Of a stretch of DNA of 64,000 nt, positions 2,102 through 64,000 are shown piece by piece (the first letter of the stretch is position 1; the number at the start of each line of letters is the position of its first letter). The DNA is taken from positions 282 through 64,281 of the forward strand of contig CAIKAP010000043.1 in assembly GCA_903825435.1 (NCBI GenBank), in the 5' to 3' direction. Below the pieces are notes generated by a model that was given only the letters and a program-made list of their open reading frames with translations, did not search any database and was not told where the DNA came from. The translations under genes were made by a program, and so were the position numbers. The stretch is from an uncultured Verrucomicrobiota bacterium. GTDB taxonomy: Bacteria; Verrucomicrobiota; Verrucomicrobiia; Palsa-1439.

Positions 2102-3547
2102 ATGAAATTCCCGTTCTTCCAACCTAATCGCCCGTCACCACATGCACACACTCCACCCCGCGCCCCCGCCACCACGCACACATCTACACCATCGCCCGCA
2201 CCCACTCCCCCTCGACGCACAGAACCCGCTACGCCACCTGTCAAACCTCCCACCGGCTCCTTACGCAGCGCACCGCTGGCTGGAGTGGACTTGCCCACGC
2301 ACATCAAGTTCAAACTCCAATCCCTGTTGACCATCCTGCCAGATAACGTGCTGGCCCACCCGCGCGCCGAAATGCCTCAGCACATCAACGTGGACCAGCT
2401 CATCCCACTGCCAACCGATTTGATCATCTCCCAACTGGCAGGCGCCCGTGTTACTGTACCGCTTGTGATCATCCTCGACGCAATTCCGACGGAAGCCCTC
2501 AGTCCATCACGACCCAACCTCGACGATGCGCCAGTAACGTTGCCCCTACACGAGATTGTCGCCCAACTACCTCCCCGTTTCTTCACTACCCGCCTCAGTC
2601 AACGCACCGTCGCGGAAATCGCACCCGACATTCCCAGCCCCTTCCAAGAACGCAAACCCACACCGCCGCTGCCAACTCATATCGAAATTCCGGTGCCGTT
2701 ACCTGCGCACGTTGCGGCCGAGGCGTCGTGCGTCGCCGTCCCTATTCCACCCCCACCAGAACCCGTCATCGAGACAGTGACGGTCAAGCCTATGACGGAA
2801 CCAACACCGGTCACGGCCGCCGCACCGGTCATTCCGCCGCGGGCACCCGAACCAATCGAAGCAATCGCTCCCGTTGCGCCAGAACCGTCACCCGAACTTG
2901 AGCCCGAGTTTGAGAAACCAACGCTCCCAGCAGGGCCTTTGGACGAGAAGATGTTCCTCATCAACTTGAACCGTTGCAGCGTCGAGGACCTGCTTTCCAT
3001 CAAGAACGTCGGCCCGGCGCTGGCCAAGCGCATCATCGCTTGGCGTACGGAACACGGGCGCTTCAACTCCATCGAGGACCTGCGTCAGGTATCCGGCGTC
3101 GGACGCAAGACGTTCCGCGCATTAACCGGCGCAAAAGCCGAGGCGCTCAACCGCCTGCTCGGCGTCGCCGCAGACCGCGAATTGTCGCTGCAAGAAGTCG
3201 TGCGACTGACCAGTAAGCTGCCCGGCCTCCAAGGCTGCATGTTGGCCACCTCCGACGGCCTCTTACTAACCGGCGAAGTGTCACCACATCTCGACAAGGA
3301 AGCCATCAGCGTCTTTGCCCCACAACTGTTCAAGCGCGTCGCCCGCTACACAAAGGAACTCAAGGTCGGACAGGTCAGCCGCTTCACCATCTTCACTGAC
3401 CAGCAACCCGTCAGCATCTTCGGCGCGGAAGACGTCTTCCTCGTCATTTTCCACGACTCCAAACACTTCAGCAAACGACTACTACGCCAATGCGAGCGCA
3501 TCAGCTTTGAAGTCGCACGACTCTGTCGCCAACGCACCACCGTCTAA
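2102..3547 (+). CDS. Three-part protein: Pro-rich low-complexity N-terminus, ComEA-like helix-hairpin-helix region, C-terminal Roadblock/LC7 (MglB-like) domain
   Basis: N-terminal approx 280 aa are P/T/A-rich; the middle (…SVEDLLSIKNVGPALAKRIIAWRTEHGRFNSIEDLRQVSGVGRKTFRAL…) resembles the ComEA HhH; the C-terminal approx 110 aa (LPGLQGCMLATSDGLLLTGE…VIFHD) has Roadblock/LC7 sequence features. Confidence 0.6.
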   Translation: MKFPFFQPNRPSPHAHTPPRAPATTHTSTPSPAPTPPRRTEPATPPVKPPTGSLRSAPLAGVDLPTHIKFKLQSLLTILPDNVLAHPRAEMPQHINVDQLIPLPTDLIISQLAGARVTVPLVIILDAIPTEALSPSRPNLDDAPVTLPLHEIVAQLPPRFFTTRLSQRTVAEIAPDIPSPFQERKPTPPLPTHIEIPVPLPAHVAAEASCVAVPIPPPPEPVIETVTVKPMTEPTPVTAAAPVIPPRAPEPIEAIAPVAPEPSPELEPEFEKPTLPAGPLDEKMFLINLNRCSVEDLLSIKNVGPALAKRIIAWRTEHGRFNSIEDLRQVSGVGRKTFRALTGAKAEALNRLLGVAADRELSLQEVVRLTSKLPGLQGCMLATSDGLLLTGEVSPHLDKEAISVFAPQLFKRVARYTKELKVGQVSRFTIFTDQQPVSIFGAEDVFLVIFHDSKHFSKRLLRQCERISFEVARLCRQRTTV

Positions 3548-39451: not shown

Positions 39452-39514
39452 GACTGGCTCCTTTCTGGTGTAACTGGTTGATGGTTTGGTTGTTATCTCT
39501 TGCAAAACGGTTCC

Positions 39515-39745
39515 GAAAGCGACTCGGATCGGCGTAAACCGACCTCGGATTATCGTAAACCGAGGGCGGATTGCCGTAAACCGAGGGCGGATTGCCGTCA
39601 TCCGAGCCGGGTTGGCGGTAATCCCGGCAAGGATGGGCGTCAACCGAGGACGGTTCGAGGCAATCCGTGCCGGGATGGTGACCAACCGAGGACGGATTAC
39701 GGTCAACCGAGCCGGGACGGCGGCAATCCCGGCAAGGATGGCAGG
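39515..39745. repeat. Degenerate 21-bp tandem repeat array, approx 10-11 units (consensus approx CGTAAACCGAGGGCGGATTGC)
   Basis: Head-to-tail 21-nt units; several six-frame ORFs read through it as heptad peptide repeats (NRGRIAV / IRPRFTA). Confidence 0.7.
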
Positions 39746-39804
39746 GGGATGAGGAAGATTCGGCTTGAAAAACCGGAAGGTATTCTACCGTGGCACAATC
39801 ATTG

Positions 39805-55094: not shown

Positions 55095-57396
55095 TTATAG
55101 AAAGCAAGAAACCGACCCAAAAGGAAAAACAGTCATGAGAAACATCAACCGCGCCCTACTGACCGCAGCCATGGTGTGCTGCGCCATGACCTTGAAGCCT
55201 GTCGTCCGTGCCGAAGGCGACGCCAGCACCAAGTCTGCAACGGATGCCACCAAGCCCGCCGGCGGCGGGGAACGGGGCGAACGTTTCCGTGAGCGGATGA
55301 AAGAACTGTCTGAGAAGCTTGGCTTGACTGAGGAACAGAAAGAAAAGCTCAAGCCAATCTTCCACGCGGAAATGGAAAAGTTGAAGGAGTTGCGCGCCGA
55401 CACCAAGTCGCCGCGCGGTCCCAACACAACCACGTGCACCACTTCGTAAGGGAGATCGGCAAGCGGTTGCAACGCGGCCACCAGCGATTCAGGACTGTTG
55501 ACGGTTTTCCCGCGCAACAACTTCGTCGGCGTCACACCATCGAGCTTGTCAATCGCCTCCTGCCGCGTCTCCGGATTCGCCCGCCATACCGCCACGTCCG
55601 GATTCACCGCCTTCCCGTTCGCCGGATCCGTGTTCGCTACTGCGGCATTGGCTTCGCGTTCGGATCGTCCACCCAACGCTCCTCCTGCACCGCGTACTTG
55701 AACCCCTTTCCCGCCTGCAACGGTTTCACCTTCGGCGACGGAACCAGTTTTTCCAGCGGCGCGCCCTTCGGCAAGCCGCCCATCGGTTGTATCGGTTTCG
55801 AGTCCATGATTCTCCTTTACCACATCGCCCGGAACTTCTCCCTTGAAAACATCGGCTTTCGTGAGTATGGTTTTGCCATAGCCTGATTGGGAGTAAACTG
55901 TGGGCAATTGGAGCCCACGAGTCAGAAACCAATCACGGCTCTTATCTTTATCCCAATACCGCAATCGCCCTTCTTCCATCCATCGTCCAAATGCAGCGTT
56001 GTCGTCTTTTCCGTAGGCACTGGCGACACGGTTGATCTCGTAAGCACCAGCGCGTTGATCCAGATGCACCGCCGCCACCAACGTCTTGCCGTTGTACTCC
56101 AGTTGCGTCATCACCACCAACGCATTGCCCCCGCGACTCGAACCAAACACCATCAACGGATCAGCGAGTGCGGTCGGAAGTTGCTTCAGCATTCCCACTG
56201 GCACCCCATGCTTTAGGGCATTCACGTCTTTGCGGATTGTCCCCGCCGCCATCGTCATCGCCAACGGACGCGCTCCTAATGCCTGTAACACGGCAGGAGT
56301 CTCGCCAATCGGCACCTGCACCTTCTCATCCAATGATTCAAGCGCCCGATCCACCAACGGCGAGAATTCCTGTTCTTCCTGTTTCGCCCGCGTCAGTTCA
56401 TTTGCCAGCGACTTCACGCCATACCCCGGCCCCGTTTCCCGCAACGTCCCGCTCTCCTCCGGTGGTAATTCACCACCGGCCTCCGTCAGGTCGCGCACCG
56501 CCTTGTACCGCTCCAGCAACTTCGTCAACGCTGCCGCGCCTGCCTCCCGATCCGTCGACACAAAATACCGCTGCTTGAAATTGATGTTCTCACCAAACAG
56601 CCCGAACTTCTCCATCTGTTTTTCACTGGGAGGTTCATACCCGTAATCCAACTCGACGCGCTGCTCGCCGTGGACTCGGCTTTGCGTCAGCTTCCAGCCG
56701 TTGTCCAACTCGATCTCCGATCCGCCCCCCTGCACCATGTCGAATATCTCGCCCGGCGTCGCATCCTTCAGCGGCGTACCGATCCCTAGCCGTTGCTTCA
56801 ACGCCGTCACCGCGTCCGGGTTCACCAGCAACCCGACCAGGTTGCGCCCATCATTCGTTTTCACGCGGACAATCTTGTTGCCTACGTCGCCCGTGTGAAA
56901 CACCTTGTCGTAAATCGGGAACACCGCGCCCGTCAGCATCGCCGCCGTCTGCGTCCTGTAATCCGGCAACGCCGCCAGTTCCTTCTCCCACAACTTTTGC
57001 GCTACTGTCCCACGGATCGGTTCGTTGTGATGGTACTCTTCGGCGCCGTACTCAAACCTATTCACCACGTGCGACTTCGCCGCTGGTGACGTGAGAACGT
57101 ACTGCGTCTTGCCATCCGAGTTCACCCGTTCCCGCGCCAGGTACACGCGACCACTCTGTTTGTTCCGAGCGAATGTCACCTTCGACGGCTCCCGCTTGTT
57201 CGCCGCCTGCGCCGATCTCCACGTCCCCCGTGATCCGCACCAGCATGTCCACCGGGTACACGTCCGTCTTCAACCGCTTCCGCGCATCCGTAACAGCCTT
57301 GCACTTGTCCGACAGCGCCTTCGATAACGCCAACACCTCCGCGTCTTCGAGTCCTTCACATACCGCCCTCGCGTTCTCCTTGGATTTCTTGCCCAT
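55095..57396 (-). pseudogene. Phage-associated large protein (approx 700 aa), apparently frameshifted near its 5' end; the ORF's last approx 110 codons (55095-55428) are read-through, not real coding sequence
   Basis: The 694-aa ORF (55095..57179) plus a 112-aa ORF (57058..57396) in another frame that starts 55 bp after the TerL-C stop; the C-terminal approx 110 aa are low-complexity and overlap the Spy-like gene. Confidence 0.45.
55135..55449 (+). CDS. Spy/CpxP-like LTXXQ periplasmic protein, probably 3'-truncated at a mobile-element junction
   Basis: Signal peptide; LTEEQKEKL motif; ends in a non-homologous tail (…RGPNTTTCTTS) that overlaps a phage-derived ORF on the opposite strand. Confidence 0.45.
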   Translation: MRNINRALLTAAMVCCAMTLKPVVRAEGDASTKSATDATKPAGGGERGERFRERMKELSEKLGLTEEQKEKLKPIFHAEMEKLKELRADTKSPRGPNTTTCTTS

Positions 57397-57450
57397 ATAC
57401 CCGTTCCCTTAGCAAGTTGGATTCCGACTTATTTAGAAATCTCCAATCCC

Positions 57451-58455
57451 TCATCCTTCCCCCGGCCGCGCCAGCCCCGTCCATCCGCTTTGCAAAGGCT
57501 TCCTCCGTCCTGCCTCCACCAATCCCAGATCCAACCGATTCATCTCCACACGCTGGACCCGTTTCCCATCCTGCACGACGAACTTCAACCGGAAGATGTT
57601 CGCCAGCGCGTACCGGAACGCATCGCAGATATGCTCGTAAAACCCATCCTTCAGCGGGAACCCGTCCTTGTCGCGCACCAAGCCGTTTCTCAACCCGTCC
57701 ACCAGGTGCTTGCAGTCCACCGGGTCAATCTCCAGCCAGCCCGCCTTAATCACCCACTGCACGATCTGAATCCCTTCGTCCACCGACATATCCCGCCACC
57801 GCGCATAAACGCCCCTCGTTTGCAGAACCTCGATGGAAGTGTCCGGTGAGCGGTCATCGTGCTGGTTTCCCGCCGGGTCGCAATAGTCCTCAATTCGCGC
57901 CCCTGGACATACGTTCGTCGCAAACGGTAGGACGTGTTTGTCAGCAAACTCGTCCACCAACAGTTCCCGCGCTATCACTTCCTTTAACGCATACACTCGA
58001 AACGTGCCGTCCTCCCTCGATTCAACCTGTAGGTGAATCGCCGCAGGCATCCTCCAACCAAAATCCCAACCGCGAAACAACGTCAACCACGGCCGATACA
58101 CCTGGGGACGCACCGTCACGCTGCCGAAATCGCAATAGACCGGCTTCCCTGGTGTGACGGTGAAGTCAATCCCGTACTCCTGCCGCCGAGAATAGATCGG
58201 CATGTCCTTCGATATATCGCCCACATACGCCCTCCCCTTCTCCGTCAGTGGAGACTTGTCTTTGTCCGCAGTGTGATGCAGCCTCACGTGCACGAACCCA
58301 TTGCGTTCCCACCGATTGATCCCGTACGCCACATGTTCGGCGCCGAGCTTCGCGCCATTCTCACGCTGCCACCAATGCGAATCCAGCAAGTCCGCCGACG
58401 TCGCCGGATCAACCACCGCATCCTTCACCGCCACGAGTTTTTTTCGCATACTCAC
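57451..58455 (-). CDS. Phage terminase large subunit, C-terminal nuclease half
   Basis: TerL nuclease-domain pattern (…CDPAGNQHDDRS…; acidic catalytic residues); ATGA overlap with the N-terminal half. Confidence 0.7.
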   Translation of the reverse strand: MSMRKKLVAVKDAVVDPATSADLLDSHWWQRENGAKLGAEHVAYGINRWERNGFVHVRLHHTADKDKSPLTEKGRAYVGDISKDMPIYSRRQEYGIDFTVTPGKPVYCDFGSVTVRPQVYRPWLTLFRGWDFGWRMPAAIHLQVESREDGTFRVYALKEVIARELLVDEFADKHVLPFATNVCPGARIEDYCDPAGNQHDDRSPDTSIEVLQTRGVYARWRDMSVDEGIQIVQWVIKAGWLEIDPVDCKHLVDGLRNGLVRDKDGFPLKDGFYEHICDAFRYALANIFRLKFVVQDGKRVQRVEMNRLDLGLVEAGRRKPLQSGWTGLARPGEG

Positions 58456-59174
58456 CCCGTCACGTCGTCATAGCCGAGTTGGCAGAATAGGTTGTTCGCG
58501 CCCTTTGCCGAACTCATCATCGTTAACTTGCCGTTCCCCGCCAGAGCCGGACGGACCGCCGTCCACACCTTCTCCTGATTCTCCGTGCTCCCCGCCTCGT
58601 CCCACAAATAGAACGCGAACTTCCACTGCCTCGCCTGTTCCGATCCCTCCGGTACTCCCACAATGAACGAGTCCGGATTCTTGCCGTGTTTGATCGTGAT
58701 GATCCCGTCACTCCGATTGTGATACGCTTCAGGCCGCGCAAACCGAGATGGAATCCTCCGCCACATAAACAGGAACCGGCTGTCCAAAAAGATATTCGCA
58801 TCGAGCAGCTTCTTGCTTTGGTAGCCGATGTAAATGCCGGGAATCGTGAGCGCCGCATGCAGATGCACACCCGCCGCCCACCACGTCGCGATCATATCCC
58901 GCGACTTTTCGACGCGGAGACGGTTTGTTCCTTGCCACTGGCGCGTCAGGTACTCCAAATACTCCGCGTCGGGAAACGGCTGTACCGGCTCGATGTGTTT
59001 GAAATGTGCGAACTCGTCGTTCGTGAACGTGGCCGTTGTTAGATACTCCCACGGATCAGACGGCAACGGCTCCTGCCCTGCCGTCACGAACTTCGACAAC
59101 TCAGCCAACGCTTGGCGCCGAAAGCTCTCCGACAATCGCGTCGAACAGGATGGACTTGCACTTAGAACAGGCAC
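58452..59174 (-). CDS. Phage terminase large subunit, N-terminal ATPase half
   Basis: Deviant Walker A of TerL (…LRVEKSRDMIAT…), Walker B/coupling FYLWDEAGS; stops where the nuclease ORF starts. Confidence 0.65.
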   Translation of the reverse strand: MPVLSASPSCSTRLSESFRRQALAELSKFVTAGQEPLPSDPWEYLTTATFTNDEFAHFKHIEPVQPFPDAEYLEYLTRQWQGTNRLRVEKSRDMIATWWAAGVHLHAALTIPGIYIGYQSKKLLDANIFLDSRFLFMWRRIPSRFARPEAYHNRSDGIITIKHGKNPDSFIVGVPEGSEQARQWKFAFYLWDEAGSTENQEKVWTAVRPALAGNGKLTMMSSAKGANNLFCQLGYDDVTG

Positions 59175-59703
59175 ATCTTTGGATCACAAGCGCGATGCGT
59201 TCCGACCACGCCTTCGCCGCCACCTCGATCTCCACTCGATCCTTCAACTTGCCCGTCAGTTTGTAGAAGAGTTCCACCGCCCGCAACTGCGTGTCGTTGT
59301 CCGTGTGGTCGCCCAGGGACAGCGCCTGATAATACTTCGTCACCTTCGCGTCGATCAGGTCGGAGTGTTTCGCCACCACCCGCTCATCCGTCAGCCCCTT
59401 CTCCGTCAACAGGTCCTCAATCCGCCGCTGCACCTTCGGATTATCGAACGTCCGCTTCTGTTGCTTCTCCGCCGTCGACCGTTTGTACCCGCCCTTGCGC
59501 ATCGCCTCCGCCTTGTTCCCCTTCGCGTCGCCAACGAACGCCACCGCCGTCCGCTCCTGCTTCAATGGCAACTGTGCACGCGCCTTCACAACTCCGCACC
59601 GCGCCGGTTTCCGCCGCGCCGCCCGCTTCTTGCCAACTTGACCGATTTGCCGTTTTGCCGATTTGCCTATTTGTGTTCGTCCCATGCCCATCCTGTATAG
59701 CAA
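59101..59703 (-). CDS. Phage terminase small subunit
   Basis: TerS pattern (…GYKRSTAEKQQKRTFDNPKVQRRIEDL…ERVVAKHSDLIDAKV…); lies upstream of TerL. Confidence 0.65.
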   Translation of the reverse strand: MLYRMGMGRTQIGKSAKRQIGQVGKKRAARRKPARCGVVKARAQLPLKQERTAVAFVGDAKGNKAEAMRKGGYKRSTAEKQQKRTFDNPKVQRRIEDLLTEKGLTDERVVAKHSDLIDAKVTKYYQALSLGDHTDNDTQLRAVELFYKLTGKLKDRVEIEVAAKAWSERIALVIQRCACSKCKSILFDAIVGELSAPSVG

Positions 59704-60014
59704 CTACCACTCCGACCTCGCACGGAACACTCCGCGGGAACGTTTCGCGACACTCACTTGACAACACCAATTTCCCCGAGCGCACGTGTATCTCCCTCCC
59801 ATCAACCGCCGGCCCCACCACACCAGAGATGAGCTAAGCTGACCTTGTGGCCTCTCACCACCTACTTTCACCTACAATTTTATTACCACTATACCAAAAC
59901 TATACCGTGTACCCAACCCAACAGACCGATTTCCGCCGACCTGTGCAGACTCGTTTAGAACCATCAGGCTCCGCCATTCTCCCTCGTAAAAACACCCATC
60001 TTGCGTGATGCAAA

Positions 60015-60155
60015 ATGGTAACGAAAAAAGGCTGGTACGCCAAAGGCGGACACGTTAGAACCATTGACGGCATTATAGACTGGTTGCACGAGTTTTGGAA
60101 GCTCCGAGAAGTGTTCGCTGCGGACCCGGTGATGGCGAAGTTGCTGGCCGCATAA
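60015..60155 (+). CDS. Small ORF (46 aa) encoded inside copy 1 of a 141-bp direct repeat
   Basis: MVTKKGWYAKGGHVRTIDGIIDWLHEFWKLREVFAADPVMAKLLAA; a near-identical 40-aa coding segment recurs at 62579-62701 without its own ATG. Confidence 0.3.
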   Translation: MVTKKGWYAKGGHVRTIDGIIDWLHEFWKLREVFAADPVMAKLLAA

Positions 60156-60173
60156 CGGCGTCATCCGACGATG
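60033..60173. repeat. 141-bp imperfect direct repeat, copy 1 (approx 88-90% identical to 62579-62719)
   Basis: tggtacgccaaaggcggacacgttagaacca…ccgacgatg is shared by both copies. Confidence 0.8.
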
Positions 60174-60225
60174 ATGAAAGGCTGACCGATTGCATTGCGC
60201 TGAGCAAGTATCGTGCACTCCAGCG

Positions 60226-60927
60226 CTAGATTCCGATGCCTTTGCTGCGGTTTTGTGTATGCGCTTTCCGAATGGACGCGAAAGGGCTGATGGCCGATGC
60301 AATTCTTGGAATCATTTTGACCGATTCGACCTTGGCACTTTCCTTGGTCAAGTATTCACGAACGCCAGTTGGCATGGTGGCAAGAGTCGGCTCGCCGTAG
60401 TAGGCCAGCGCTTTGAGTGAGAGGACGGGGTTGAACTCAGGATACAGTGCTTTGGTTGCTCCCAGGGCATCGGGCAAGGTGATCCCGGCTTTCAGGAGCG
60501 TGTAAATGTCGGAGTAATCTTTTGGTTCGGCGCGGACCAAAATCACTTTCATCTTCTGGGCCGCCAGATCAAGAAGCGACGCGATGCAAACGTGATTGTC
60601 CTCGCAGCGGTCAGGTCGGCCAACGCGGCCAATGGTCAGGCCACCGAAGAATGAGACTTTGATCGCTCCGCCCCGATCGACGGTGAACGTGGCGGTGTTG
60701 GGCTCGGATTGGATTAGCTCTGCGCCGTCGAGGAATGCCAAGCTCCGGCCCAAAACGTCCGCCGAAACAGGACGGTTCGTGAAGAAATCGAAATCCACCG
60801 ATTGTCTCCCGCCCAAACGCAGGGCAACGGCGGTTCCCCCATACAAAACGAAATGATCAGGGATTTGAGAAAGTTCCGGCCACAAGCGTCGCTGCTCTGC
60901 CGGGAGAGTGTCAAGACGCGGCCTCAT
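60226..60927 (-). CDS. Nucleotidyltransferase AbiEii/AbiGii-family toxin (type IV TA / abortive infection)
   Basis: AbiEii pattern (…FVLYGGTAVALRLGGRQSVDFDFF…, …DYSDIYTLL…); start at MRPRLDTL…. Confidence 0.7.
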   Translation of the reverse strand: MRPRLDTLPAEQRRLWPELSQIPDHFVLYGGTAVALRLGGRQSVDFDFFTNRPVSADVLGRSLAFLDGAELIQSEPNTATFTVDRGGAIKVSFFGGLTIGRVGRPDRCEDNHVCIASLLDLAAQKMKVILVRAEPKDYSDIYTLLKAGITLPDALGATKALYPEFNPVLSLKALAYYGEPTLATMPTGVREYLTKESAKVESVKMIPRIASAISPFASIRKAHTQNRSKGIGI

Positions 60928-61259
60928 GTGGGGATAGCGCGCTGGGGTGGCGGGGGAACAGGGAGAAGATGCAACCGGTGGTGCCAGTAATGCCACGAAC
61001 GGTTGTCAAAAAGACCGGGCGGGGCGGATCGCAACGCTTCACGGAATACAGATTTACCATGATGATCGAGGACAAAACAGATGTCCGCCCACGTTCCGAA
61101 CACCATGACCCGGCAGAGAAAAATCGGGGTGTTATCAAGCGTTGTGTCAGCGGATTGCCACCAGCACACCCGCCGCGCGATGGAGGTCAGCCGTTCAGAA
61201 CCCTTTTCTGTTGTCAGCGTGTTCTTCACAACTTTTTGGATCCAACAGAAGTATAACAA
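60924..61259 (-). CDS. Putative cognate antitoxin of the AbiEii-like gene (unrecognised family)
   Basis: The ORF stop overlaps the AbiEii start as ATGA; start site uncertain; weak coding signal. Confidence 0.25.
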   Translation of the reverse strand: MLYFCWIQKVVKNTLTTEKGSERLTSIARRVCWWQSADTTLDNTPIFLCRVMVFGTWADICFVLDHHGKSVFREALRSAPPGLFDNRSWHYWHHRLHLLPVPPPPQRAIPT

Positions 61260-61401
61260 ACCGGGCGTGAATGTCGAGCTTGGCTCTGTGCAACAGATGC
61301 GGTGCGATGAATGGGCAGCGCATCGGCATTCGGGACAAGAAGGTTTCCGCGATCAAATTGCCGACGCTTGACACCCGGTAGCGTTATGCTACCTTTTTGG
61401 C

Positions 61402-61785
61402 ATGAGCCAACCTGTAAAACTTTCCGATGCACTGGTCTTGGACGCCCGACTGGCCGGAGAAACGGTCGAACGCTCCATCGCGGGACAAGTGGAATTCTGG
61501 GCAAAAATCGGCAAGGCCATTGAGCCGTTACTTCAGGGCACGCAGGTGCTCGCCTTGTGTCGGAATGCCGCCACGCGCCCGCTGTCCGACTGCCTGAAAT
61601 CCGTGGATTCGCCCGCCGGGCGCCACCGCGTGACAGAGTTTCTCCAAGAGCAGCCCTGGCCACACTACGAACCGCACCCGCATCAAGCTGGCGTGCTCGT
61701 CCGCACTGAAGCCGACGGGAAACGCACGGTCGGGCGATTCGTCAACCGCCAGTTCCAGCCGGTCAAGTTGAAAGCCACGAAGTGA
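61402..61785 (+). CDS. Putative antitoxin partner of the zeta-type toxin
   Basis: 127-aa ORF whose stop overlaps the zeta toxin start (ATGA). Confidence 0.4.
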   Translation: MSQPVKLSDALVLDARLAGETVERSIAGQVEFWAKIGKAIEPLLQGTQVLALCRNAATRPLSDCLKSVDSPAGRHRVTEFLQEQPWPHYEPHPHQAGVLVRTEADGKRTVGRFVNRQFQPVKLKATK

Positions 61786-62393
61786 TGAGCTCCGACATGC
61801 GTCGCGAGTCCAAGGCGGACCTGCTGCTCGACCGCCGTCCGGTCCTTGTCGCGCTCGCGGGGCCGAATGGCGCGGGTAAAACCACTTTTTACCACGCCCA
61901 TCTCCAGCCCGCCGGGCTGCGGTTCATCAACGCCGACGTACTGGCGCGGGAACTGAACCTCGATCCCTACGCGGCTGCTCACGTGGCCGAGGCGCTCCGG
62001 CGTCAACTGGTGGAACAGCGCGAGAGTTTCGTGTTTGAAACCGTGTTCTCCGATCCGGTTGGCGACAAGCTGACTTTCCTGAAAGAAGCGGCAGCAAAAG
62101 GCTACACCGTTGTTCTGTGCTTCATTGGACTCTCCGGGCCGGCAGTCTCGGAAGCGCGTGTCGCCATGCGCGTCTCGCAAGGCGGACATGATGTGCCGGC
62201 CGAAAAGCTGGTCGCACGGTTCCCCCGCACATTGGCGAACCTCAAGACCGCCATTCGCGAACTGCCGCACGTGTGGATTTTCGACAACGACGATCTGCGC
62301 ACCCCGTTCCGTCAGGTTGCTGTTTTCGAGAACGGCCAGCAGGTGATCCTGAATAAGCCGGCGCCCGAGTGGCTGCGGCCGTTGTTGGCTTAG
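61782..62393 (+). CDS. Zeta-toxin family P-loop kinase (short AAA_33/zeta type)
   Basis: Walker A LAGPNGAGKTT; zeta/AAA_33-like length (203 aa) and motif order. Confidence 0.75.
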   Translation: MMSSDMRRESKADLLLDRRPVLVALAGPNGAGKTTFYHAHLQPAGLRFINADVLARELNLDPYAAAHVAEALRRQLVEQRESFVFETVFSDPVGDKLTFLKEAAAKGYTVVLCFIGLSGPAVSEARVAMRVSQGGHDVPAEKLVARFPRTLANLKTAIRELPHVWIFDNDDLRTPFRQVAVFENGQQVILNKPAPEWLRPLLA

Positions 62394-62578
62394 AATTGCG
62401 TTCCTCACCTGCCGTCGCGAGGTCGTTTTCGCGGTGCAAGTCAGCGAGCCGGCCGAGACGCCACCCAAGACCACCAAGTAGTGGTGAAGAAGGCGAGAGT
62501 GAATGTTGCCAAGGCGCACTCGCAAATCGATCACCGGATCTTGGTGGATGCGATGAAGACAGTCGTGTTCGACAGCAG

Positions 62579-62719
62579 TGGTACGCCAAAGGCGGACACG
62601 TTAGAACCATCGACGGCATTATCGACTGGCTACGCGAGTTTTGGAAGCTCCAAGAAGTGTTCGCGGTGGACCCGGTGACGGCAAAATTGCTGGCCGCATG
62701 ACGGCATCATCCGACGATG
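62579..62719. repeat. 141-bp imperfect direct repeat, copy 2
   Basis: Same unit as 60033-60173; the two copies bracket the AbiEii/zeta cassette. Confidence 0.8.
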
Positions 62720-62804
62720 TTTGCCGAGGCGATTGACGCTGGCACAGTCGCGTTCGGCGGCGGCTCTGTGGCGGGGCTTCTTTAGAAAGAAAAACTTGGC
62801 CTGC

Positions 62805-63203
62805 TCAAGCCAAGAGCGGCTTGAAACCGGCCTGTTCAAAATGCCGGTCAGCAGTGAGAGCTTCGTGAATGTCTGCGTCCTTCATCGCCACGAAAGAGGT
62901 GCAATCGGTGAGCGACCAGTTTTTGTCCGCCCGACTGGCGAACAGGTCCAAGCCGCGCTGCAACAGACGTGAATCGAGTGGCACGATGGTTGACCGCTGA
63001 CTGGCGCGAATTCCGGCGACCATGGCCAAATAATCGGCGTGATCTTCCGCGCGACCGCACGCGTTGCCCAATTCGAGGATGATGAACTCGGTGGTGAGGA
63101 TGGAACGGCTGGTCTTGGATGCCGCCAGTGCCCGGTCGTGCAATGGATCGCGCGCGTCCAGAAGCGCCAGATAAAACGACGTGTCGGCAAACGCGACGCT
63201 CAT
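62805..63203 (-). CDS. vapC: PIN-domain ribonuclease toxin VapC
   Basis: PIN acidic residues (…FADTSFYLALLD…, …TTEFIILE…, …DCTSF…). Confidence 0.85.
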   Translation of the reverse strand: MSVAFADTSFYLALLDARDPLHDRALAASKTSRSILTTEFIILELGNACGRAEDHADYLAMVAGIRASQRSTIVPLDSRLLQRGLDLFASRADKNWSLTDCTSFVAMKDADIHEALTADRHFEQAGFKPLLA

Positions 63204-63493
63204 GTCCGCTTGGGAACGCCGTACAAGTAGTGGTCCAGATTGCCAGCGTAGCCCTTCGGCCAGTGGGGACGCGGCTTGGCGACTTTGAGGACCGCCGCGA
63301 CAAACGGATCATCCTCCGGTCGCAACCCCTCCGGGACGACTTCCACCGCAGTCCCGTCCGCCAACTTGGCATCGGCGGGGAGGACCACCACGCCATTCTT
63401 GACTGTTCCTTTGTAGGTCACGCCCAACTTGTAGCGCGAATCGACTCCAGAAGCAAGCCGGCAGAAAACCTGTCGCCGTCGCGTCTCACCCAA
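63200..63493 (-). CDS. vapB: VapB-type antitoxin (AbrB/SpoVT-like swapped-hairpin); start uncertain
   Basis: 4-nt overlap with the vapC start; N-terminal …GTVKNGVVVLPADAKLADGTAVEV… resembles the AbrB/MazE fold; the ORF table start is a TTG next to the tRNA. Confidence 0.5.
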   Translation of the reverse strand: MGETRRRQVFCRLASGVDSRYKLGVTYKGTVKNGVVVLPADAKLADGTAVEVVPEGLRPEDDPFVAAVLKVAKPRPHWPKGYAGNLDHYLYGVPKRT

Positions 63494-63495
63494 AT

Positions 63496-63571
63496 TGGTA
63501 CCCCCAAGGGGAATCGAACCCCTGTTCTCAGATTGAGAATCTGATGTCCTAGGCCACTAGACGATGAGGGC
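63496..63571 (-). tRNA. tRNA-Glu (anticodon CUC)
   Basis: Reverse complement GCCCTCA TC GTCT AGTGGCCTA GGAC A TCAGA TTCTCAA TCTGA GAAC AGGGG TTCGATT CCCCT TGGGGGT A CCA; arm layout closely parallels E. coli tRNA-Glu. Confidence 0.9.
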
Positions 63572-63647: not shown

Positions 63648-64000
63648 ATGAGCAATCTCAAGAAGGTCTCGACTAATTTGTACCGGGATGTCCGCACGGG
63701 GATATATTACTGCATCATCCGCAGGGGTGGTGCAAGAATAAAAGAGAGCCTCAACACCCGTGAACGGACTCTTGCATCGGCCCGTCTCCATGATCGGCTT
63801 TCCGAACTGCCCGACCGCACTGCCATCGCCTCCGCCGATGCCACGTGGGATGCCGTTAAAAGACTGTATATTGACGTTCTTGCAAAACTCGCTTTTGCGG
63901 GCTTTTTCGGCGATGGATTTGAACGGGATGCAAGGGGAAGCGTCTCAGAGTTATGCATGAACTGACCGCGATCTTCCACCATCTTCAACGCCATCTTTTC
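63648..64000 (+). CDS. int: Tyrosine-type phage integrase, N-terminal part (continues beyond window end)
   Basis: Integrase N-terminal arm/SAM-like pattern (…LYRDVRTGIYYCIIRRGGARIKESLNTRERTLASARLHDRLSEL…); adjacent to the tRNA. Confidence 0.65.

Follow-up and report, generated by a model that had tools for sequence, protein, structure and literature searches.

Phage 21 and e14 integrate in icd, carrying a diverged replacement of the end of the gene. Integrases specific for dusA also direct integration into a protein-coding gene, again with a diverged replacement of the gene end (PMC4482086). Islands that target tRNA genes restore the split target, and the displaced fragment marks the far end of the island (Islander, PMC4383910). 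Elements that have kept both att sites after deletion of their integration and transfer genes are described as CIMEs, with examples among the ICESt1-related elements of Streptococcus thermophilus (PMC5704250). We analysed a stretch of 64,000 nucleotides from an uncultured Verrucomicrobiota bacterium (hereafter the window), in which two direct repeats enclose toxin-antitoxin genes. The locus is probably what a decayed integrative element of CIME-like type has left behind, with toxin-antitoxin modules stacked as cargo, and its repeats are probably copies of an att site. Related loci used for comparison are designated by L numbers.

The repeat pair and its surroundings

A repeat search and a BLASTN self-comparison both recovered imperfect direct repeats of 141 nt on the forward strand, at 60033-60173 (copy 1) and 62579-62719 (copy 2), bearing out a sequence-only reading that had placed 141-bp repeats here. 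The copies start 2546 nt apart and match at 128 of 141 positions, or 91% (90.78% by BLASTN, E ~3e-49), slightly above the 88-90% given earlier. Apart from a 21-nt tandem array at 39.5 kb, this was the sole repeat longer than 44 nt, and searches for the repeat and for the sequence module that it carries found no third copy in the window. The 13 differences between the copies comprise seven synonymous changes, four conservative replacements (H/R, R/Q, A/V and M/T), one change of stop codon (TAA to TGA) and one change past the stop. The repeats are not due to chance, and they carry a genuine coding signature.

Copy 1 consists of a 30-nt core-like head (60033-60062, TGGTACGCC...GTTAGAACC), about 30 codons, a TAA stop (60153-60155) and a further 18 nt. 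Its reading frame opens with an ATG at 60015, and the resulting 46-aa ORF (60015-60155) has the same sequence as the one proposed before. Copy 2 contains the same 40 codons followed by a TGA stop (62699-62701). It lacks a proper start, as had been noted: ATG, GTG and TTG are absent from the 30 in-frame codons upstream, and its sole in-frame ORF begins with a GTG at 62369, within the end of the zeta gene, and was called by no gene caller. Homology of copy 2 to the copies at L014, L020 and L013 extends about 20 nt further, to about 62731-62738, which brings the module at copy 2 to 62579-62738. Past the repeat end, copy 2 still matches the integrase-free single copies at L014 and L020; in copy 1 the sequence there gives way to cargo.

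The toxin-antitoxin genes that had been read between the repeats, AbiEii with an upstream overlapping ORF and zeta with an upstream antitoxin, were upheld. Adjacent to copy 1 is an AbiE-carrying segment (60174-61346, no strand assigned), delimited as an indel relative to L009, L012 and L038. It encodes an AbiEii-type nucleotidyltransferase toxin on the reverse strand (60226-60927, 233 aa from the called ATG, with the frame open to a GTG at 60996), which scored 51.9 bits against PF08843 (cutoff 22.5) and gave a weak PADLOC match to AbiEii. A 111-aa ORF (60924-61259, reverse strand) overlaps the 233-aa AbiEii start by 4 nt and is conserved in 66 homologs at 56-88% identity, none of them with a Pfam domain. 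This ORF had no match, to AbiEi or any other family, in Pfam, NCBIfam, PADLOC or PDB profiles, and we consider it the putative cognate antitoxin of an undescribed family. A sigma-70-like promoter match (TCGACA-16-TATACT, 61250-61277, reverse strand, by consensus only) sits just upstream of it, at the boundary between the AbiE and ParD modules. On the forward strand follow a ParD-like antitoxin of 127 aa (61402-61785; PF11903, 49.4 bits) and a zeta-toxin-family P-loop kinase of 203 aa (61782-62393; PF06414, 50.8 bits; Walker A GPNGAGKT), whose gene overlaps the antitoxin stop by 4 nt. The pair has the composition of a zeta/PezT toxin-antitoxin system in which the upstream antitoxin is ParD_like, not epsilon/PezA. 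An 86-nt remnant of a 119-aa ORF of L009 (62412-62497, reverse strand, 82% identity) completes the interior.

To the right of copy 2 are a PIN-domain VapC toxin (62805-63203, reverse strand; PF01850, 34.3 bits) and, upstream of it, a 73-aa ORF with no family match that is a putative VapB-type antitoxin (63200-63421, reverse strand). Beyond these lies a tRNA-Glu(CTC) gene (63496-63571, reverse strand), whose 3' end reads TGGTACCCCCAAGG on the forward strand. Together with copies 1 and 2 this end makes three sites that match the core pattern in one orientation, and it is the last of them. No att repeats of this tRNA-Glu bounding the whole island were found. The left neighbour is a terminase small subunit gene (59101-59703, reverse strand; gene calls and Pfam), with which a phage-like packaging block (55095-59703) begins; the block also holds two terL-like ORFs and a MuF_C protein.

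A shared module beside tyrosine integrases

The repeated module recurs as about 25 variants in Verrucomicrobiota metagenomes. Strict search patterns, which needed exact peptide words, found it in 2 of 185,579 species genomes, and no relatives were found in viral contigs. In all 10 DNA variants, and in further protein variants, the module starts sharply at TGG[T/C]AC[G/A]CC with unrelated DNA upstream, and every copy ends with a conserved stop codon, for which TAA, TAG or TGA is used. Left flanks are unrelated in all copies, even at apparently unoccupied sites. An HMM search of 1.84e9 representative proteins added 12 small ORFs that end in the module and have unrelated N-termini; a full-length host gene ending in the module was absent from the same library. 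Because each copy has its own, unrelated N-terminus and about half of them have no start codon, it is doubtful whether the 46-aa 'gene' forms a unit. Insertion into the 3' part of a small gene with partial duplication of the target, as had been suggested, does not fit either: the invariant junction is the 5' end of the 40 codons (the TGG of Trp), and the duplication takes in almost the whole ORF.

The 40-aa peptide had no match in Pfam, NCBIfam, PADLOC or PDB, and searches of libraries of 5.8e9 and 1.84e9 proteins returned only orphan small ORFs. Its predicted structure, two helices at residues 6-29 and 32-39 with a pLDDT of 71, is too small for a meaningful fold search. Codons 1-10 are constrained at the DNA level, with invariant TGGTAC.CC and GTTAGAACC flanking a variable centre and with constrained synonymous sites, and a third-position bias marks codons 11-40. 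The overall pN/pS comes to 0.23, and none of the 10 copies has an internal stop. The antisense frame, whose third positions coincide, is likewise open in 10 of 10 copies, but its pN/pS is 0.36 against 0.23 and its translation is of low complexity; we treat it as a shadow of the forward frame. Frameshift fusions (to the response regulator at L010, to frame A upstream of copy 2, or by read-through of the L018 integrase) were rejected, the frames being inconsistent across loci. Rfam and ARAGORN returned no known RNA, tRNA or tmRNA for either repeat copy at E up to 10. The consensus fold, as RNA or DNA, is weak (-17.5 kcal/mol, covariation term -2.4) with few compensatory pairs, and one lone candidate pair (columns 17/25, GC/GU/AU) was insufficient for a structured RNA. 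A tmRNA-like reading of the '...LLAA' end was rejected because the CCA-like end lies on the strand opposite to the ORF.

In several relatives the module stands next to an integrase gene. At L009 and L013 the integrase stop is followed by 32-33 nt and then by the module, an arrangement shared by L018, and at L010, L016 and L017 the integrase lies 175 nt upstream of the module in divergent orientation. The recombinase genes of L010 and L017 are flanked by two module copies. Integrases of three sublineages are abutted by the module at the same nucleotide. In all other family members examined (L023, L025, L026, L028, L029 and L030-32) the 3' end of a tRNA-Arg gene takes exactly the position of the module, behind a homologous spacer, and the P-arms of L018 and L029 are identical over 23 nt up to the TGG. 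Module and tRNA-Arg end have their first 9-11 nt in common, with weak similarity beyond (11-14 of 18). Equivalent in position to the tRNA-Arg end and constrained as DNA over its first 30 nt, the repeat may correspond to the target or att site of the integrase. Because of this positional equivalence and the 9-11 common nucleotides, the module appears to combine two parts, an att-core-like head of 30 nt and some 30 codons under purifying selection for an orphan helical peptide. Single modules without an integrase occurred in other genomes only, at L033 (beside recQ), L019 (after a response regulator), L014/15 and L020.

Against PDB, the integrase family profile matched XerA (2.3e-10), Brujita gp33 (2.6e-10) and XerD (6e-7). 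Residues R242, R335-H336 and Y367 are invariant, and homologs carry PF00589; judged by this catalytic domain, the integrase of the relatives is a tyrosine recombinase. The L009 and L010 integrases themselves received no Pfam score. One family member, P0010, was found in the same metagenome samples as the window. L009 additionally carries a TrwC relaxase; its ends show no terminal overlap that would indicate circularity, and within the 10-kb flank of the L023 tRNA-Arg element no second att was found.

Probable decay of the element and its possible origins

Direct repeats flank the window element as they do a genomic island or IME (141 nt, 91%), and an integrase inside the element was seen only in the relatives L009, L013, L018 and L010. 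Between the window copies there is no integrase, excisionase or relaxase, nor any recombinase ORF in 60174-62578, and mobility is therefore historical at best. In L009 the 119-aa ORF precedes the TrwC relaxase gene; its remnant adjoins copy 2 in the window and is also kept at L038. As judged from this homology, the 86-nt remnant marks an internal deletion of backbone genes, relaxase through integrase. With no integrase or transfer gene, and with 86 nt as the only trace of the backbone, the locus is therefore better described as a decayed element than as an intact cassette. The idea that the repeats are site-specific recombination junctions of a mobile element gained support from the modules beside tyrosine integrases at L009, L013, L018 and L010.

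Locus comparisons also divided the bracketed DNA. The AbiE segment is absent from L009, L012, L013 and L038, and at L009, L012 and L038 the ParD/zeta module follows the module tail without interruption. On its own, the core of the segment (60223-61281) turns up again beside a truncated module at L021/L022 and partly at L018. These alignments indicate that AbiE is an independent indel and that the bracketed DNA is not one unit. L038 is 94% identical to the window over ParD/zeta, the remnant, copy 2 and VapC, but on its left side it has dnaE, a gene that the window lacks, and no more than 28 nt of module tail. The right half, with copy 2 and VapBC, is conserved in another left context and therefore moves or persists as one block, and the right flank of copy 2 may not be 'host' DNA. 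At L012 the order is module, ParD/zeta and VapC, with no second copy. A search for an empty site, an uninterrupted single copy at the window locus, found none: the population contigs L001-L008 and L037-L043 all carry the insertion. Nowhere in related genomes were the two copies seen separated by housekeeping genes.

We propose that the att modules belong to a family of integrating and mobilizable elements in Verrucomicrobiota that rely on a divergent tyrosine integrase, relatives of which integrate at the 3' ends of tRNA-Arg genes. An ancestor organized like L009 (module - ParD/zeta - cargo - 119-aa ORF - TrwC relaxase - ... - integrase) would have entered the 30-nt, tRNA 3' end-like head of a resident module by site-specific recombination, with the crossover there yielding one module copy at each element end. 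An internal deletion would then have removed everything from within the 119-aa ORF through the integrase, leaving an integrase-less, att-flanked remnant, a CIME as in PMC5704250, in which only the addictive toxin-antitoxin cargo was kept. The AbiE module would have been gained separately, at a hotspot that adjoins the left module on its 3' side. As for the att module itself, its 3' three-quarters encode some 30 residues under purifying selection and may be carried to regenerate a small ORF at the left junction, much as islands rebuild the ends of their tRNA, icd or dusA targets. The left copy at L010 has no start codon, and such regeneration is therefore not universal. It is conceivable, though we think it unlikely, that the att site is dual-purpose. 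By mimicking the tRNA-Arg 3' end, its 30-nt head would have given a tRNA-directed integrase clade a new, portable landing pad, and the helical micro-ORF of about 30 residues joined to it in frame would be maintained by purifying selection. As the start of this ORF would come only from the DNA across the junction, its expression would signal or govern whether the element is integrated, or else would seed new pads at places where an element decays.

The most serious competitor to a single decayed element is that the copies are left-end modules of two decayed units that became stacked as they integrated one after the other at the tRNA-Glu 3' end (63496), one unit running from copy 1 through AbiE and ParD/zeta to the remnant and the other comprising copy 2 and VapBC. 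The module, core plus P' arm, would therefore be a property of the elements and not of a host target gene. Three co-oriented TGGTACNCCMRRSG matches in a space of 3.5 kb, of which the tRNA-Glu 3' end is the last, are in keeping with such stacking, as are the tRNA-directed habit of the integrase family, the sporadic occurrence of the module under the strict patterns (2 of 185,579 species genomes) and the finding that tandems of decayed elements are common among IMEs (PMC5704250). At L010 two units are homologous from the TGG to about 1.45 kb inside paralogous cargo (68-71% identity), a pattern to be expected of related units in tandem, and the block from ParD/zeta through the remnant and copy 2 to VapC is conserved at L038 in a different left context. 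However, none of the integrase family members seen was located at a tRNA-Glu, the interval from VapB to the tRNA is free of integrase remnants, and the single modules at L033 and L019 have no tRNA in their available flanks; the downstream homology of copy 2 to L014/L020 suits the flank of a resident site equally well. We regard stacking as possible but rather improbable.

An ordinary duplication of a small host gene by homologous or illegitimate recombination, followed by divergence of the copies and the chance arrival of toxin-antitoxin genes between them, would account for the intact frame in both copies, for the mostly synonymous differences and for a window without an integrase. It is very improbable given that the module abuts three integrase sublineages at the same nucleotide, that all copies share an identical sharp 5' boundary against unrelated upstream DNA, that a backbone-gene remnant adjoins copy 2, and that synonymous sites are constrained over the first 30 nt. 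Toxin-antitoxin cassettes are typical cargo of integrons and transposons, and here such modules are stacked directly after the att module, but transposon target-site duplications, IS ends or integron attC-type boundaries hardly deserve consideration as sources of the repeats. An imperfect 141-nt repeat is much too long for a target-site duplication; terminal inverted repeats, transposase and IntI are all absent; the cassettes are not individually bounded (L012 lacks the second copy); and the consensus fold is weak at the energy and covariation given above. Gene content effectively refutes this origin.

Comparison with known systems

As a decayed integrative element, the window locus is a genomic islet of a fairly ordinary kind whose attachment site is unusual, and the survival of toxin-antitoxin cargo beyond the mobility genes is the expected fate of addiction modules. 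Its by-products are of modest value. One is a previously unannotated, tRNA-Arg-directed tyrosine-integrase family in Verrucomicrobiota, some members of which are invisible to Pfam and at least three sublineages of which are tied to a non-tRNA module. Others are an att site in which a micro-ORF under selection would be joined to a tRNA-like core, a hotspot immediately on the 3' side of that site at which cargo modules such as AbiE and ParD/zeta replace one another, and a conserved, unclassified partner protein for AbiEii-type toxins. These by-products could aid island mapping in Verrucomicrobial MAGs, in which module-type sites would escape island finders based on tRNA genes.

The cargo resembles AbiE (type IV) and ParD-like/zeta (type II) systems in having toxin domains above Pfam thresholds and two-gene operons with 4-nt overlaps. 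It differs in that the AbiEii partner is not of the AbiEi family by Pfam, NCBIfam or PDB, and the zeta partner is ParD-like and not epsilon/PezA. With no IntI and no individually bounded cassettes, the locus falls outside the integron cassettes. Islands in icd and dusA share the imperfect direct repeats, the mostly synonymous differences, and the frame and stop kept in both copies; here, however, nearly the whole ORF is duplicated, its N-terminus is unconserved and often absent, and no full-length conserved host gene was found among 1.84e9 representative proteins. Like tRNA-targeting islands, the integrase family lies 31-34 nt from, or overlaps, a tRNA-Arg 3' end, and the module occupies the tRNA-Arg position with the TGGTACGCC(C/A) end in common, but the module is 123-160 nt long, is no tRNA by ARAGORN and Rfam, and has its coding strand opposite to the tRNA that it replaces. 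In comparison with CIMEs the att repeat stands out by its unusual length (141-160 bp), by an identity of only 91% and by consisting largely of protein-coding sequence; the element also comes from a Verrucomicrobiota MAG, and its integrase has diverged too far for direct Pfam scoring. Several features are common to both: att-derived direct repeats stand on both sides of an interior free of integrase and relaxase, a backbone remnant and the addiction modules have been kept, and an intact relative, L009, carries both the integrase and the TrwC relaxase.

Direct repeats and the genes around them

The sequence-only reading had described imperfect 141-nt direct repeats around toxin-antitoxin genes, and we confirmed this arrangement. 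The two copies of the repeat unit, here called the module (copy 1, 60033-60173; copy 2, 62579-62719), are identical at 128/141 positions, and the proposed self-comparison by BLASTN recovered them with an E value of about 3e-49. In the 64 kb they are the sole long repeat besides a tandem array of 21-nt units near 39.5 kb (39505-39756; 60-72% identity among seven overlapping copies of a 105-nt register), which is probably a repetitive coding segment. Between the copies lie genes for AbiEii (60226-60927, minus strand, PF08843), a 111-aa ORF overlapping the AbiEii start by 4 nt (60924-61259, minus strand), a ParD-like antitoxin (61402-61785, plus strand, PF11903) and a zeta-family kinase (61782-62393, plus strand, PF06414). 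Right of copy 2 are a VapC/PIN gene with a small ORF upstream of it and, farther on, tRNA-Glu(CTC) (63496-63571, minus strand). The window comes from a metagenomic Verrucomicrobiota contig, and the same arrangement was found in near-identical contigs from several samples (L001-L008, L037, L039-L043). One of them (L002, 4410 nt, same sample series) is 99.97% identical over window 59235-62916 and departs from the window on both sides, within terS and within the PIN gene, reflecting either strain-level mosaicism or chimeric assembly.

The left neighbour is a phage-like packaging block (55095-59703, minus strand) with terS (PF03592), two adjacent terL-like ORFs of 240 and 334 aa that lack Pfam matches and resemble a large terminase split in two, a 112-aa ORF and a 694-aa MuF_C protein. 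It holds no further structural genes, and host-type hydrolase, ECF sigma and DUF1501 genes lie immediately to its left; the block is possibly a prophage remnant or satellite.

The 111-aa ORF, which has a promoter-like site immediately upstream, is one of a conserved family of proteins roughly 100 aa long that share an invariant W/H/C-rich motif, ...SWHYWHHR... (66 homologs, 56-88% identity, all labelled 'hypothetical'). It matched neither AbiEi nor any entry in Pfam, NCBIfam, PADLOC or PDB, even when PDB was searched by profile. The family may be a new family of antitoxins against DUF1814/AbiEii toxins.

The module as a coding-like sequence

In copy 1 the module supplies the last 40 codons of a 46-aa ORF that starts at 60015. 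The 13 differences between the copies comprise seven synonymous and four conservative changes, one TAA/TGA stop swap and one post-stop change. Across ten distinct DNA variants the plus frame has no internal stop and retains its terminal stop as TAA, TAG or TGA, the pooled pN/pS is 0.23 in this frame and about 1 in four others, and minimum substitutions by codon position are 19/15/41. Also open is the antisense frame whose third positions coincide with those of the plus frame (pN/pS 0.36); we read it as a shadow of the plus frame because its translation is of low complexity.

Pfam, NCBIfam, PADLOC and PDB contained no relative of the 46-aa peptide, and a word-sharing search of 5.8e9 proteins returned only the peptide itself. 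A profile search of 1.84e9 representatives added 12 small ORFs (45-125 aa), with the 40-residue segment C-terminal in 11 of them and the N-termini unrelated in all 12. Homology starts exactly at TGG[T/C]AC[G/A]CC in every copy, the upstream DNA differs in each, and about half of the copies lack an in-frame start. Coding bias lies in codons 11-40. Within codons 1-10, TGGTAC(G/A)CC and GTTAGAACC are invariant, synonymous sites included, and the centre between them varies at all three codon positions, which is how a DNA-level site behaves. AlphaFold placed two helices at residues 6-29 and 32-39 (mean pLDDT 71), with low confidence for residues 1-10. Selection on codons 11-40 is clearly purifying, but a conventional gene is not evident; the module is coding-like without being a normal gene.

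Islands restore the ends of icd. They do the same for split tRNA and dusA targets (PMC4383910, PMC4482086). If the element carried the ORF body, a small ORF would likewise be regenerated at the junction, and by this analogy restoration would be the likeliest ordinary explanation of peptide conservation. The left copy in L010, a related contig, has no start and N-termini are never conserved, both of which count against it. A junction-dependent role of the peptide is possible but unsupported.

Integrase and tRNA-Arg at the module

In the Verrucomicrobiota MAG contig L009, 33 nt separate the stop of a 405-aa gene from the module, which leads straight into ParD/zeta genes (L009 2965-4020 matches window 61347-62401 at 90%); a 119-aa ORF and the gene for a 988-aa TrwC relaxase come farther along. 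L013 has the same order, with 32 nt between integrase and module; in L018 a degraded integrase, the module and a piece of the AbiE module follow one another; and in L010/L016/L017 a 370-aa homolog lies 175 nt upstream of the module in divergent orientation. The 405-aa protein has no Pfam match of its own. Since homologs at 50-69% identity bear PF00589, the family profile matches XerA (2e-10), Brujita gp33 and XerD, and the Arg, Arg-His and Tyr positions are invariant, it is a divergent tyrosine recombinase. In L018 (239-1267) the degraded integrase ORF is in frame with the module as a single 342-aa ORF, a read-through that we judged fortuitous because the integrase has frameshifts. In L010/L017 each module copy (L010 5943-7643 and 10448-12150) heads a paralogous gene set (68-71% nucleotide identity) that encodes a PEP-CTERM-like 212/196-aa protein and a 281/636-aa protein, and a large serine recombinase and the tyrosine integrase lie between the copies.

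Beside every other readable member of the integrase family (P0002, 85% identity; P0003, 79%; P0004, P0006, P0008, P0010) we found a tRNA-Arg on the opposite strand, its 3' end (TGGTACGCCC...) lying 31-34 nt past the integrase stop or overlapping it. The tRNA-Arg end and the module share the same place relative to the integrase gene in every case, so that the module is found where this family has its att/tRNA target. Spacers in L023, L026, L028 and L030-32 resemble those ahead of the module in L009 and L013, and the P-arms of L018 (module) and L029 (tRNA-Arg) share 23 identical nt up to TGG. The sequence common to module and tRNA-Arg covers the first 9-11 nt, with weaker likeness to about nt 30 (11-14/18, plus GTT(A)GAACC). 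Beside the integrase of L025 stands just the 3' half of a tRNA-Arg, an attP-type configuration.

The P0010 integrase (L030-L032; 51% identity to that of L009, beside tRNA-Arg(CCT)) was found in samples ERZ18624244 and ERZ1426560, both of which also yielded contigs from the same organism as the window; this integrase might act in trans on the remnant. In L026 (856-3408) a tRNA-Arg(ACG) lies between two integrase genes, a family member at its 3' side and an unrelated PF00589 integrase (2251-3408) at its 5' side. A 105-aa ORF just past the 5' side of the window's tRNA-Glu (63648-63965, plus strand) holds the equivalent place and resembles the N-terminus of the latter (49% over 39 aa); its stop after 105 aa makes a truncated integrase probable. 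Recurrence of an integrase (plus) after a tRNA (minus) suggests another element family that uses the opposite side of tRNA genes.

Other genomes have lone modules whose available flanks contain no integrase: L033 (with a 534-aa gene on one side and recQ on the other), L019 (past a response regulator, with an ATG four codons ahead of Trp), L014/15 and L020 (frameshifted). A search of related genomes for an empty site of the window locus found none. The module's distribution is under-sampled because the genome and metagenome scans required exact peptide words.

Origin of the repeat-flanked segment

The AbiE pair (window 60174-61346) is extra relative to L009, L012 and L038, and sits exactly between the module tail and the ParD/zeta module. 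The same AbiE module lies behind a truncated module in L021/L022, and part of it behind the module in L018, which makes the site just 3' of the module a cargo hotspot and AbiE an independent indel. Past zeta, a remnant of the 119-aa ORF of L009 occupies window 62412-62497 (82% identical), and copy 2 starts about 80 nt past it, where L009 continues into the relaxase. The simplest history would start from an L009-like integrative mobilizable element (IME) with one module per side; a deletion would then have removed everything from the 119-aa ORF through the integrase, ParD/zeta would have been retained, and AbiE gained. A further 20-45 nt of downstream homology is common to copy 2, L014, L020 and L013, and copy 1 (141 nt) and L009/L012 (137 nt) end abruptly into cargo, as would fit element DNA downstream of copy 1 and a resident flank downstream of copy 2. 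The sequence-only reading of a site-specific insertion stands in part: recombination footprints flank toxin-antitoxin cargo, with the module at an integrase att/tRNA position. A discrete, intact cassette in the 3' part of a gene was not upheld, AbiE being an independent indel and the backbone ORF reduced to a remnant.

Some loci fit this history imperfectly. L038 (3267 nt) encodes a PIN protein identical to the window's and is 94% identical over ParD/zeta, remnant, copy 2 and VapC; its left side has a dnaE 3' end (dnaE is absent from the window) and a mere 28-nt module tail in place of copy 1-AbiE-terS. The decayed right half thus occurs in two left contexts, so that the VapBC flank of copy 2 may be part of a larger composite and not host DNA. 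L012 reads module-ParD/zeta-VapC with no second copy, the two units in L010 are homologous from TGG onward, with the match extending about 1.45 kb into paralogous cargo (68-71% identity), and the window has three co-oriented core-pattern matches, the last being the tRNA-Glu 3' end. Together these loci keep alive tandem accretion, a reading with decayed units stacked at the tRNA and one module copy at the head of each.

The four-step decay from an IME fits the published definition of a cis-mobilizable element (CIME; PMC5704250). The repeat-flanked segment is probably an att-flanked decayed integrative element, a known kind; the att module and the integrase family associated with it are new members, the module unusually combining a tRNA-like core with a coding tail.
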